DNA of 64,000 nucleotides, taken from the NCBI GenBank assembly GCA_040756875.1, contig JBFLYH010000002.1, forward strand, positions 927,078 to 991,077. The letters run 5' to 3'. Source of the DNA: a candidate division FCPU426 bacterium (lineage in GTDB: Bacteria > Oederibacteriota > JAAXVQ01 > JAUVAV01). This document shows positions 1,948 through 58,604 of this stretch, piece after piece. Within the stretch, counting starts at the first letter, position 1. Every line of letters starts with the position of its first letter. The notes beneath the pieces are model-generated. The model did not search any database. It saw only the letters and a list, made by a program, of their open reading frames with translations, and had not been told where the DNA came from. Both the position numbers and the translations under genes were made by a program.

Positions 1948-2070
1948 ATAGGACCGGTGCGCACGATTTCGAAAGACGGCTGCCATAGGGTGGGCAGCCT
2001 CGACTTGCGAAAAGGCATGAGTAAAAGTCCTTTTCGCAAACGCTTTCTCAATCATACGCACCGGTCCTAT
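1948..2070. repeat. Three-way-junction structured intergenic element, copy 1
   Basis: 14-bp perfect terminal inverted repeat (ATAGGACCGGTGCG/CGCACCGGTCCTAT) enclosing two hairpins. Core 1975-2043 matches 56686-56754 at 55 of 69 positions. Confidence 0.8.
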
Positions 2071-18653: not shown

Positions 18654-18849
18654 CAGGGTGCTGAAAAATCCGGATAGGTTCCGCTAGCACCCTGTACTGG
18701 CCCTCCAGATAGATATAAGGCTGGTAGGGTCAGCACCTGACGGTTACCCCATGATAAATCACTGATTTGTCATGGGGTATTCCATGCGACGCAATCGAAC
18801 AAGTCCGCTCTGCGGACTTGTTCATCAGCATGTTAGGGAGGCGGACGCG

Positions 18850-36823: not shown

Positions 36824-36842
36824 TTGCTCAAGAAAAAGATGG

Positions 36843-37171
36843 CGGCTTGCGCCGCAAAAGATTCATCCCCTTCGCCATGCGCAACAGTTGGCAATGAAGC
36901 CAGGCGGAGGATGCCAGGCTCGGGGATGATATAAACAAGTTTTACGGCTTGCGCCGCAAAAGATACATCCCCTTCGCCATTGGCAATTGTTGGTTGTGAG
37001 TGCCGGCGAAAATTGACGGGCTCGGGGATGACATTCACAGGTTTTGCGGCTTGCGCCGCAAAAGATTCATCCCCTTCGCCATGCGCAACAGTTGGCAATG
37101 AAGCCAGGCGGAGGATGCCAGGCTCGGGGATGATATAAACAAGTTTTACGGCTTGCGCCGCAAAAGATTCA
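36843..37171. repeat. 102-bp tandem repeat, 3.2 units (A-B-A-partial)
   Basis: Units start at 36843, 36945, 37047 and 37149 (CGGCTTGCGCCGCAAAAGAT). Units 1 and 3 are identical; unit 2 is diverged mainly in its centre. Confidence 0.97.
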
Positions 37172-46662: not shown

Positions 46663-47054
46663 ACTGGATTTGGAATTTGTGGCGCGTGGCCATTTACTGG
46701 GGCTTGGCCCTGGTTCTGGGTTGGTGCGCGCTTTTCGGCGGCACGGTGCTGGGCTTTCTCGGGCGGGCGGCGGAAGCCATGCTTCTGCTCGGCGGCATCG
46801 CGCTGGCGGTTGTGGCCCTGGTCAACCGGTGCTGGCATCTGGCGGCGAAACCTGCTTCGATTGAACCCAAGCCTCCGGCCGCAGGGGGTGCGAAGTCCCC
46901 GGCCGTAGCGGGTGCGAAGTCCCCGGCCGTAGCGGGTGCGAAGTCCCCGGCCATAGCGGGGGCGAAGTCCCCGGCGGTCACGGGTGCTAAGCCTCAGGCG
47001 GCAACCGCCGCCAAAACGCCGGCGCTGGCCGGAACCGGACAGAAGGGAGTGTAA
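46659..47054 (+). CDS. Small two-TM hypothetical protein with a GAKSPAV(A) repeat tail
   Basis: ATG overlaps the upstream stop; two hydrophobic helices; ends 3 nt before fliA. Confidence 0.6.
   Translation: MNWIWNLWRVAIYWGLALVLGWCALFGGTVLGFLGRAAEAMLLLGGIALAVVALVNRCWHLAAKPASIEPKPPAAGGAKSPAVAGAKSPAVAGAKSPAIAGAKSPAVTGAKPQAATAAKTPALAGTGQKGV
46886..46993. repeat. 24-bp coding tandem repeat (~4.5 copies)
   Basis: GGGTGCGAAGTCCCCGGCCGTAGC-type units at 46886, 46910, 46934, 46958 and a partial at 46982. Confidence 0.92.
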
Positions 47055-54670: not shown

Positions 54671-55678
54671 ATGACGCGAGCCGCCGTTTTTCACATTTGC
54701 CTTCTGGGCCTGGCGCTGGCTTTCAGCCGGCCGGGGCTGGCTTTGGACGTTCGTTTCGGCGATCCGGCGGGCACCACGCCCGCGGCCAGCAGCGCCCTGC
54801 TGCCGCCGCTGACCTGCAAACTGCAGACACTGACGCCCAAACCGCGCCAGGGAGAGCCGGTTCAATTCAGCCTCACTTTGCAGCTCCAGCCCGGCGTGGT
54901 GGCGGACTCGGGCACGACCCTGACCAGCCTGGGCGAGTGGGAAGTGCTGGGCGTGGAGCGCGGGCCGGCGCAGGACCAGGAAGAAAAGCGCGTGCGCCAG
55001 GACCGGCTGACCCTGGTCACCTTTGCCAGCGGCAAAGTGGAAGTTCCGGCCTGGATCCAGACCTTCCGGCTGGCCGACGGCCAGCCCGGCGAATTCCGGA
55101 CCGCGCCCTTGACCGTGAACGTGGAGCCCGTGCCGCACCACTCCGGAGACCGGCCGGGTGAAATCCGCGGCTTGAAGCCGCAGCGCGGCCTGTTTGTCGC
55201 CTGGCCGTGGCTGTTGGCCGCCGCGCTCGCCTCGCTGGCCGTGGCGGCCGGATGGTGGTGGAGCCAGCGGCAAAAACCCGGCGCGCTGCCGTTCGCTGCG
55301 CCCAGCCGTCCGCCGGCCGAAGTCGCGCGGGAGCAGTTGGAGCGTCTGCGGCAGGCGGATTGGCCCGGCCAGGGTAACTTTAAAGCTTACTACGTCGAAT
55401 TGTCGGCCATCTTGCGCTTGTATGTGGAAGGATGCTTTCAAGTGCCGGCGCTCGATCAAACCACGCCCGAGCTGCTCAAGGCTCTGAAACACGCGCGCGC
55501 CAAACTGCCGGACATCAATGCCAGCCGCGAGGTGTTGAACCGCAGCGACCTTGTGAAATTCGCCAAGTGGCTGCCCACGGCCGCCGAAGCCCAGGCGGAC
55601 TGGCAGGCGGTCTGGGATATGGTTGAGCGCACGGAACCCAAGCCCGAGCCGGCGGAGGAACCCCATGCAGCTGGCTAA
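54671..55678 (+). CDS. Bat-operon membrane protein (BatD-like N-terminus)
   Basis: Signal peptide, TM helix, KAYY..LS.ILR.Y, QTT.E and DLVKFAK motifs; between DUF58 and batA. Confidence 0.8.
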   Translation: MTRAAVFHICLLGLALAFSRPGLALDVRFGDPAGTTPAASSALLPPLTCKLQTLTPKPRQGEPVQFSLTLQLQPGVVADSGTTLTSLGEWEVLGVERGPAQDQEEKRVRQDRLTLVTFASGKVEVPAWIQTFRLADGQPGEFRTAPLTVNVEPVPHHSGDRPGEIRGLKPQRGLFVAWPWLLAAALASLAVAAGWWWSQRQKPGALPFAAPSRPPAEVAREQLERLRQADWPGQGNFKAYYVELSAILRLYVEGCFQVPALDQTTPELLKALKHARAKLPDINASREVLNRSDLVKFAKWLPTAAEAQADWQAVWDMVERTEPKPEPAEEPHAAG

Positions 55679-56654
55679 TCCGTGGTGGCTGCTCCTGCTT
55701 CTGCCCGTGGCCGGACTAGCCTGGCTGCTGTGGCTGCGCAGCCGGCGGCCCGAGGGCTTCAAGTACGCGGAGCTGTCCTCCTGGCGAAAACTGGGCCCAG
55801 CGCAGGCCTTCGGCCCCGATGAGGCGATCTTCGCGCTTTTTATTCTCGGTTTGTGCCTGCTGGTCATGGCCCTGGCCAGGCCCCAAGCCGGCGTGAAAAC
55901 CGAGGAAGTCACGGGCCGGGGCGTGGACATCATGCTTTGCCTGGACACCTCGGGCTCCATGCGGGCCGTGGATTTCCAGCCGCAGAACCGGCTGGGTGCG
56001 GCCAAGGAAACGGCCATCCAGTTCATCCAGGCCCGGCCGCGCGACCGCCTGGGTCTGGTGGTGTTCGGCGGCGCAGCCCAGACTGTCTGCCCGCTGACCG
56101 CGGACAAAAAGGCGCTGCTGGATTTCATGCGGCAGGTGCGGATCGACATGACCGGCGTGGACGGCACGGCGCTCGGATCGGCCGTGGCCCTGGCTGCGGA
56201 CCGGCTGCGTTCCTCGAAAGCGGCCAGCAAGGTGATATTGCTTTTGACCGACGGCCGCAACAACACAGGGTCGGTTTCGCCGCTGACTGCAGCTAAAGCC
56301 GCGGCTGCGCTGGGGATCAAGATTTATGCGGTCGGCGCCGGGTCGCCCGGCGGCGGGCTGATTCCGGTCCAGGACCCGGTTTTCGGCACGCGCTACGCCC
56401 GCATGGAGCAGGACTTGGATGAGGACACATTGCGCGCCCTGGCCGCGGAAACCGGAGGCAGTTATTTCCGGGCCAAGGACAGCGAGGGACTCAAACGGAT
56501 TTTCGAGCGCATCAATCACATGGAAAAAAGCGATTACCAGATCAAGGCCTTCACCCATTACCGGGACTTGTATTTCAACTGGCTGGCCGCTGGCTGGTTG
56601 CTGCTGGCCGCGGCCCTGGGTCTGCGTTACGCGGTTTTCAGGCGGTTGCCGTAG
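55665..56654 (+). CDS. batA: BatA vWA-domain protein
   Basis: N-terminal ANPWWLLLL, ALARP, MIDAS DTSGSM, GTALG and LLTDG.NN motifs. Confidence 0.9.
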   Translation: MQLANPWWLLLLLPVAGLAWLLWLRSRRPEGFKYAELSSWRKLGPAQAFGPDEAIFALFILGLCLLVMALARPQAGVKTEEVTGRGVDIMLCLDTSGSMRAVDFQPQNRLGAAKETAIQFIQARPRDRLGLVVFGGAAQTVCPLTADKKALLDFMRQVRIDMTGVDGTALGSAVALAADRLRSSKAASKVILLLTDGRNNTGSVSPLTAAKAAAALGIKIYAVGAGSPGGGLIPVQDPVFGTRYARMEQDLDEDTLRALAAETGGSYFRAKDSEGLKRIFERINHMEKSDYQIKAFTHYRDLYFNWLAAGWLLLAAALGLRYAVFRRLP

Positions 56655-56660
56655 AGAAGG

Positions 56661-56779
56661 GGGGATGGCGGCCTTTCACCCGCGGGACGGCGGCCATTGG
56701 GTAGGCCGCCTCGGCTTGCGAAAAACGATGCCTACCAGTGTTTTTCGCAAACGCCCGCTGGCGAAAGGCCGCCATCCCC
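56661..56779. repeat. Three-way-junction structured intergenic element, copy 2
   Basis: 17-bp perfect terminal inverted repeat (GGGGATGGCGGCCTTTC/GAAAGGCCGCCATCCCC) enclosing the same 69-nt two-hairpin core as 1975-2043. Confidence 0.8.

Positions 56780-56813: not shown

Positions 56814-58604
<1,791 letters not shown>

Follow-up and report, generated by a model that had tools for sequence, protein, structure and literature searches.

Two unrelated operons, flgF-flgG and batA-batB, carry a similar folded element directly behind a stop codon. What kind of element is this, and what keeps its fold? The question arises from a 64,000-nucleotide stretch of the genome of a candidate division FCPU426 bacterium (called the window, at its full length). 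The original prediction, made from this sequence, described a conserved three-way-junction element present twice, and suggested a ribozyme, a processing site, a protein-binding motif or a Y-shaped REP. We followed the element through the genome and its relatives. The family belongs to the non-autonomous transposons known as MITEs, and the two window copies are probably old relics of it.

Fold and context of the two window copies

The cores of the two copies (1975-2043 and 56686-56754) align without gaps and are identical at 55 of 69 positions, as had been reported, and the six stem differences read from the aligned sequences form three compensated pairs. The copies begin 10 nt (copy 1) and 6 nt (copy 2) after a stop codon, which agrees with the predicted 6-10 nt. 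The upstream FlgF-like and BatA-like genes both lie on the + strand, in line with the same orientation claimed for the copies in the flgF-flgG and batA-batB operons. The features are as follows.

1948-2070, + strand: copy 1, a putative relic without ends (outer stem and Y core), at the flgF-flgG junction; covariance-model score 101 bits
1948-1968, + strand: copy 1, 5' arm of the outer stem P1, pairing with 2050-2070; 21 bp, with two A-C mismatches on the + strand
2050-2070, + strand: copy 1, 3' arm of P1
1969-1975, + strand: copy 1, 2x2 internal loop and P2; TC opposite TC at 2048-2049 (tandem GA/GA on the - strand)
1971-1975 paired with 2043-2047, + strand: copy 1, helix P2, 5 bp
1978-1999, + strand: copy 1, hairpin H1; 7 bp, 8-nt loop
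2005-2039, + strand: copy 1, hairpin H2; 11 bp, 13-nt loop; A-tract/T-tract stem, similar to the inward portion of the terminal inverted repeat (TIR)
56661-56779, + strand: copy 2, a putative relic without ends, at the batA-batB junction; covariance-model score 94 bits
56661-56679 paired with 56761-56779, + strand: copy 2, P1, 19 bp
56682-56686 paired with 56754-56758, + strand: copy 2, P2; the 2x2 loop is CC/TG instead of TC/TC
56689-56710, + strand: copy 2, hairpin H1
56716-56750, + strand: copy 2, hairpin H2
1248-1937, + strand: upstream host gene, FlgF-like; FlgEFG subfamily above cut-off, flgF model best yet below cut-off
2108-2881, + strand: downstream host gene flgG; TIGR02488 above cut-off
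55665-56654, + strand: upstream host gene for a BatA-like VWA protein; BatA model best, below cut-off
56820-58604, + strand: downstream host gene for a BatB-like VWA and TPR protein; BatB model best, below cut-off

From the outside inwards, the fold consists of P1 (21 or 19 bp), the 2x2 loop, a 5-bp helix, and the three-way junction with H1 (7 bp) and H2 (11 bp). The three-way junction had been recognized correctly, while the second short helix and the 2x2 loop between closing stem and junction had been overlooked. The perfect closing stems of 14 and 17 bp are the initial pairs of stems whose full lengths are 21 and 19 bp. These stems look unrelated in sequence between the two window copies, as had been noted, but by eye they grade into one another when the whole family is compared. 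The 123 nt first given as the extent of the element cover the relic; the intact element is larger.

Against 200 dinucleotide shuffles, the folding z-scores on the strand first read were -8.3 (copy 1) and -8.8 (copy 2), and those on the opposite strand were -12.0 and -10.5. No shuffle (0/200) folded as well as either copy. Scans of both copies found no promoter or terminator. TIR remnants in the flanks were not significant for copy 1 (p 0.14 left, 0.07 right) or for copy 2 (p 0.998 left, 0.13 right). Other repeats in the window are three units of 102-nt period after a flagellar gene (36842-37171), a 24-nt coding tandem repeat (46845-47036), and a run of glutamine codons in the BatB-like gene (58207-58371).

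A family of MITEs with a common interior

The element is present not twice but in 13 copies across the genome, 11 of them found by BLAST and a profile and two more by covariance models. All 13 are intergenic, and the adjoining genes are functionally unrelated. The first covariance model had matches in 7 of 99 genomes of the phylum, namely 6 of the 11 in the bacterial family and one from a sister family. Among relatives, G006 had 27 matches, including young near-identical subfamilies, followed by G007 (8), G004 (3), G001 (2) and G009 (1). A second covariance model matched 3 of 41 genomes. Nothing convincing was found for the core beyond the phylum. A pattern scan of GTDB gave nine loci, six in the bacterial family and three outside it scoring 17 bits or less; a metagenome scan gave none; viral scans gave four loci (three tested with the model, all negative) and none; plasmids and phages gave only short chance hits; and none of 151 genomes of another phylum carried the core. 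The family is narrow and spans one order of an uncultured phylum. Two longer variants (G000:C2:25797-25901 and C2:728025-728182) have one or more extra hairpins, placed either at the junction or within the loop of H1, and one added hairpin is common to both. At one locus in G006 (L066, contig C205), the left stem arm and the right half come from different subfamilies, and the locus is a recombinant or an assembly chimera.

The borders of the element could be read from the flanks of near-identical copies in G006, where about 185 bp are bounded by a 15-bp inverted repeat. This TIR, GAAACCTCTGAAAAA, defines what we call shell A. Its target duplication is 5 bp, AT-rich and mostly A-N3-T. An exact 5-bp duplication flanks 10 of 16 two-ended shell-A elements, compared with 0.72 after shuffling of partners, and 4 of the 7 that bear the core; one of these four is the intact copy of the genome under study, at G000:C1:1258902-1259088. 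A further row that a string match had marked as core-bearing is a false positive and is not among the seven. Intact members are intergenic, often directly behind a stop codon. In G057 and G058 this TIR is also found at the ends of a 130-bp family whose interior is different (23 loci), and 15 of 20 two-ended copies of that family have a 5-bp duplication. Single elements in other genomes have the TIR too. Because the TIR comes with a 5-bp target duplication and also bounds the 130-bp family, the Y-core family belongs to the MITEs: it is short, non-coding, multi-copy and intergenic, with TIRs and a target duplication.

The same core occurs between other ends. The TIR of shell B starts with CAGG, and a 4-bp YTAR-like duplication was seen in 7 of 12 elements of this shell overall. 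Among the six core-bearing shell-B elements with both ends, the duplication is exact in one by script and in two by eye after a 1-nt shift, has one mismatch in two, and is absent in one. Elements in shells A and B are non-coding, 181-187 bp long and of fixed geometry, the TIRs lying 37-38 nt to the left and 49-52 nt to the right of the model. The core is also found in shell D, which is 305-316 bp long with TGT..ACA ends and no evident duplication (G007, G009), and in a REP-like shell in G006. A tree of the cores, with 13 of 23 inner branches unsettled, is too weak to order the history of the shells.

Several related elements do not contain the Y core. The window itself includes a member of another MITE family (18654-18832), with shell-B ends and several A-tract/T-tract hairpins. 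It has about 26 loci in the genome, with 4-bp YTAR-like duplications and no replication bias (12/29). The 130-bp shell-A MITEs of G057 and G058 (L356, L357, L369, L374-L393) have a three-hairpin design that parallels this shell-B family, and several of them are lengthened to 175-283 bp by additional hairpin modules within their loops. Shell-A or shell-B ends also surround REP-type hairpin pairs (G000:C1:551760-551919, C1:1286556 onward, L180, L189, L361).

An autonomous element with shell-A ends was sought in several collections. None was seen in 33 loci of a viral scan, in 25 loci of a metagenome scan, among the 13 hits from a scan of another phylum (401 genomes), in the 40 loci read in the phylum (where 22 of 99 genomes have shell-A ends), or at five further DUF772 loci. 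The genome has no match to DDE_Tnp_1, DUF772 or IS110. IS5-family (NF033581) and IS1182 (NF033551) elements in the phylum or on plasmids have ends similar in style. Those of IS5 share an ACCTC..AAAA pattern with shell A, and those of IS1182 resemble shell B, which has 4-bp YTAR-like duplications, with no exact TIR match in either case. The assignment of shell A to the IS5/IS1182 group is one of resemblance only, since the ends are not the same sequence and the look-alike IS5 ends have 4-bp duplications as opposed to 5 bp in shell A. Unlike these families, the Y-core element has no transposase gene.

RAYT/HUH transposases had been proposed as possible neighbours of further copies. There were no core matches within about 1.5 kb of 30 Y1 loci (of 45 Y1-family matches), and none in 55 transposase or reverse transcriptase (RT) loci. 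The two Y1 genes and three RT genes of the genome are far from all copies. Among the neighbour proteins (64 of 100 listed ORFs scanned), there was no transposase and no recurring family. Two of the RT genes (692 and 439 aa) are adjacent in an AT-rich island (G000:C3:159953-163344) that resembles a two-RT defence system; the third is at C1:1275501-1276904.

Within the genome, the copies form a decay series from intact through those with the left end only (p 0.002) and those with both ends degenerate (p 0.04, 0.01) to those with no ends, and about 8 of the 13 have no TIR remnant by eye or score. Internal deletions of the core are seen in G006, and many copies of the family no longer contain it. 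At the orthologous flgF-flgG junction, none of the three relatives that have the gene carries the core, and at batA-batB none of the nine shown does (one interrupted by a contig end); these relatives are too distant to fix the exact insertion borders. Because neither window copy has detectable ends, we infer their MITE origin from the family.

What keeps the fold

The original prediction named covariation among further copies as the test of structural selection. Covariation is indeed present, and it holds up in alignments of 26-57 sequences. In alignments fitted to the model, 92.4% of cells pair in 57 distinct rows, with double changes in 24 of 31 pairs, and 92.3% pair in 26 diverse rows, with double changes in 23 of 31. 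An unfitted 19-row alignment gave 92.3% paired and double changes in 18 of 31. None of 500 shuffles reached the observed covariation, and slid controls drop to 38-52%. Constraint differs along the element. In a comparison of 23 representatives drawn from 44 full-length copies, the identity of P1 is only 33-41%, although 75-87% of it is paired. Identity is 76% in the H1 stem, 79% in the H2 stem, 84% in the first junction, 71% in the 2x2 loop, and 52-54% in the hairpin loops, which contain a few near-invariant bases. The claim of conserved unpaired bases holds for some of them. The interior is best read as a constrained module: about 20 bp paired irrespective of sequence, then the 2x2 loop, a 5-bp helix and two hairpins whose sequence is conserved.

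Weak signs suggest that the strand opposite the mRNA is the one favoured for folding. Of 49 rows with both sides, 28 have the TC/TC loop, which is a tandem GA on the opposite strand; none has GA/GA on the strand first read. Stem mismatches in 11 copies of the genome are A-C in 12 cases and G-T in 2 (p 0.013), as against 6 and 11 in 110 control hairpins; this genome-only test was picked after the data were seen. Over all groups the ratio is 36:34 raw and 40:32 by distinct events (p 0.41), and thus there is no significant wobble-pair strand preference over all copies. The opposite strand is lower in folding energy in 36 of 47 copies as DNA and in 29 of 47 as RNA.

We put the probability at about 0.55 for the account as a whole, namely old MITE relics with a constrained interior, a DDE transposase acting in trans, and constraint on the strand opposite the mRNA. 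The MITE link alone is very likely. The window copies would be old relics of a MITE of about 185 bp, moved in trans by an IS5/IS1182-group DDE transposase that is probably encoded elsewhere or long lost. After insertion the ends would decay or be deleted, while the stem and Y core would outlast them and finally collapse to a plain hairpin. The constraint would work mainly to the benefit of the element and would most probably act through the DNA strand opposite the mRNA, folded as a single strand; this is the weakest step of the account, and template switching may help to keep the arms matched. For the flagellar and bat operons the element would have no fixed role. Several findings stand against this account. 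The search for an autonomous shell-A element was negative, and the genome lacks a DDE_Tnp_1 or DUF772 match. Loss of both ends in about 8 of 13 copies, each time anew, is unparsimonious. A single MITE lineage gives no simple account of the core in REP-like and TGT..ACA shells. The strand signal is not general, and copy 2 itself lacks the TC/TC loop. The sense bias in operons described below is unexpected under a DNA-only model.

The stem and Y core might instead be mobile themselves, as a REP-like single-strand module read by its structure by an HUH transposase or an unknown nuclease, landing in palindromes (several kinds of MITE shell included) or behind genes; the TIR shells would then be hosts or later carriers. 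We consider this unlikely, even though the same core is found in four shells and alone, and shell-A ends elsewhere hold other folded cargo, including CGTC-type REP pairs. REP dimers are likewise always within a 41-bp palindrome with a similar A-tract in the accessible text of PMC3733652, and the tandem GA and wobble signs fall on one strand. All 13 copies in the genome have the same orientation to replication, but 82% of genes are on the leading strand, so that P is 0.076 for 13/13 if copies merely follow genes. In G007 only 3 of 8 copies are leading, and the replication-strand rule was rejected as a general one. Shells A and B keep equal spacing around the core, as expected if the whole element descends jointly. 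No empty parent shell was seen, and 54-bp short forms look like deletions. Moreover, the stem ends of the 47 copies listed have no GTAG/CGTC tag and no fixed border, and the negative results around transposase and RT loci and among neighbour proteins also speak against a mobile core. Among the options first suggested, a mobile repeat comes closest, but as a MITE with TIRs and target duplication rather than a REP with a neighbouring HUH transposase.

It is less probable again that the host keeps a sense-strand RNA fold between cistrons, as a stabilizer or an RNase III site of the kind proposed for Neisseria Correia/NEMIS. A stem of 16-24 bp suits RNase III, and rnc is present in the genome. Where the flanking genes point the same way, 23 of 29 copies have the sense orientation (p 0.002; 10:1 in the genome and, by hand tally, 13:5 in relatives), leaving 6 of 29 antisense. 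An unrelated MITE family in the genome is also gene-skewed (11:3, hand tally), and the bias alone is therefore not special. The mismatches of the genome favour the other strand. MITE transcripts can influence the fate of mRNA, according to the accessible parts of PMC10969869 and PMC2229807.

Comparison with the congeneric G001, which is 64% identical to the genome at fourfold sites (10,669 sites, 57 genes), bears on this possibility in both directions. Two or three sites are shared, with the core in one species and a collapsed hairpin in the other. At one junction, G001 has an intact copy and the genome has a collapsed P1-like hairpin (G000:C3:366494-366535, L335). At ftsA-ftsZ, the genome has an intact copy and G001 an H1-like relic. 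At batA-batB, G001 has a small hairpin. At no shared site is the core intact in both species. The surviving cores at putative shared sites match the consensus at 35/37, 42/47 and 41/47 positions, with fewer differences than under neutral decay (P 0.01, 0.05, 0.11). If the insertions are shared with G001, decay of the surviving cores is somewhat below the neutral expectation. All four G001 junctions examined (L278, L283, L288, L107) also hold other REP-like repeats. Since these junctions are hot spots for insertion, we infer rather than prove common ancestry of the shared sites. The lone hairpin at L335 has 13-14 bp matching the outer stem of the family, and looks like a collapsed relic.

That the fold is under no selection is quite improbable. 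Similarity would then reflect descent, and template switching, which can create or maintain stems (bioRxiv 10.1101/2021.04.15.439925, in its accessible part), would keep the stems matched and mimic compensatory change. One subfamily has indeed turned the 2x2 loop into perfect pairing, neither strand has an overall G-T excess, and the core is often deleted. However, the 2x2 loop should then vanish everywhere, yet TC/TC persists across shells. The difference between the outer stem (33-41%) and the hairpin stems and junction bases (76-84%) would be left unexplained, as would the near-invariant unpaired bases.

A new ribozyme, riboswitch or small RNA can be dismissed almost entirely, despite the three-way junction, covariation and conserved unpaired bases: neither the window nor seven loci matched any Rfam model at gathering score (best relaxed match E 0.9), both copies lack a promoter or terminator, the neighbour genes are unrelated, and TIRs with target duplications account for the spread. 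A ribozyme or a required mRNA site, as first suggested, is unsupported given the absence of an Rfam match, the orthologous junctions without the core, the antisense copies and the frequent deletion of the core.

Comparison with known elements, and meaning

The Y fold is undescribed in the sources searched, and in kind it is explained as a MITE. Bacterial MITEs such as Correia/NEMIS, ERIC, YPAL/RU-2, RUP and QMITE2 are, in the accessible text of PMC2229807 and PMC10969869, 70-300 bp long and without coding capacity, with TIRs of 15-30 bp. They also share with the Y-core family a target duplication that is lost as copies age, insertion into AT-rich intergenic sites beside genes, and stable folds; they are moved in trans, as the Y-core family is predicted to be. 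The Y-core family differs in its interior, where a long stem of its own encloses a covarying three-way junction. This interior is common to elements with different TIRs and duplication lengths, and another difference is that many copies persist without ends. No shared covarying interior is described in the accessible text of these two papers, and the main texts of the open-access literature gave no description of this element or of such an interior.

The CGTC-1 REP dimers of Halothiobacillus neapolitanus lie in 41-bp palindromes, and in the accessible text of PMC3733652 these shells have no reported target duplication. Like the Y core, they are a folded module regularly found inside an A-tract/T-tract palindrome. 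The Y core, however, is untagged (GTAG/CGTC) with a variable outer stem, while in REP elements the stems are the conserved part. REP/REPIN elements with RAYT and IS200/IS605 elements are also gene-less, intergenic and strongly folded, with a possible strand preference. Neither is known to make a target duplication. REP/REPIN identity was rejected, as there is no GTAG/CGTC tag at the hairpin foot and no copy flanks a Y1/RAYT gene. An IS200/IS605 origin was rejected on the 5-bp duplication, the lack of a fixed border or of a Y1 gene near the core, and a lagging-strand link that is not general (13/13 here vs 3/8 in G007). Known ribozyme, riboswitch and small RNA families were rejected because no Rfam model scored above gathering.

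Interest is limited by the narrowness of the family. For RNA-motif discovery, the family is a warning that a decayed transposon can yield covariation, conserved junction bases and sense orientation. MITE interiors tend to be regarded as passive padding between the TIRs. In the present case, each of two interior designs was seen with a pair of TIR types that differ in their duplications: the Y core with shells A and B, and the three-hairpin 130-bp design with shell A (G057/G058) and with shell B in this genome. What is unusual is the retention of one fold between different ends. Together with the strong covariation of the Y core, the two designs offer a testable case of interior constraint and end swapping. 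A bolder and rather doubtful idea is that the 20-bp stem of any sequence and the Y core form a structure-read single-strand module, exchanged between or needed by several transposon ends (5-bp, 4-bp, TGT..ACA and REP-like) and also landing alone. If that were true, an unrecognized protein would read a tandem-GA three-way junction, and the interiors of MITEs would be functional, exchangeable parts.
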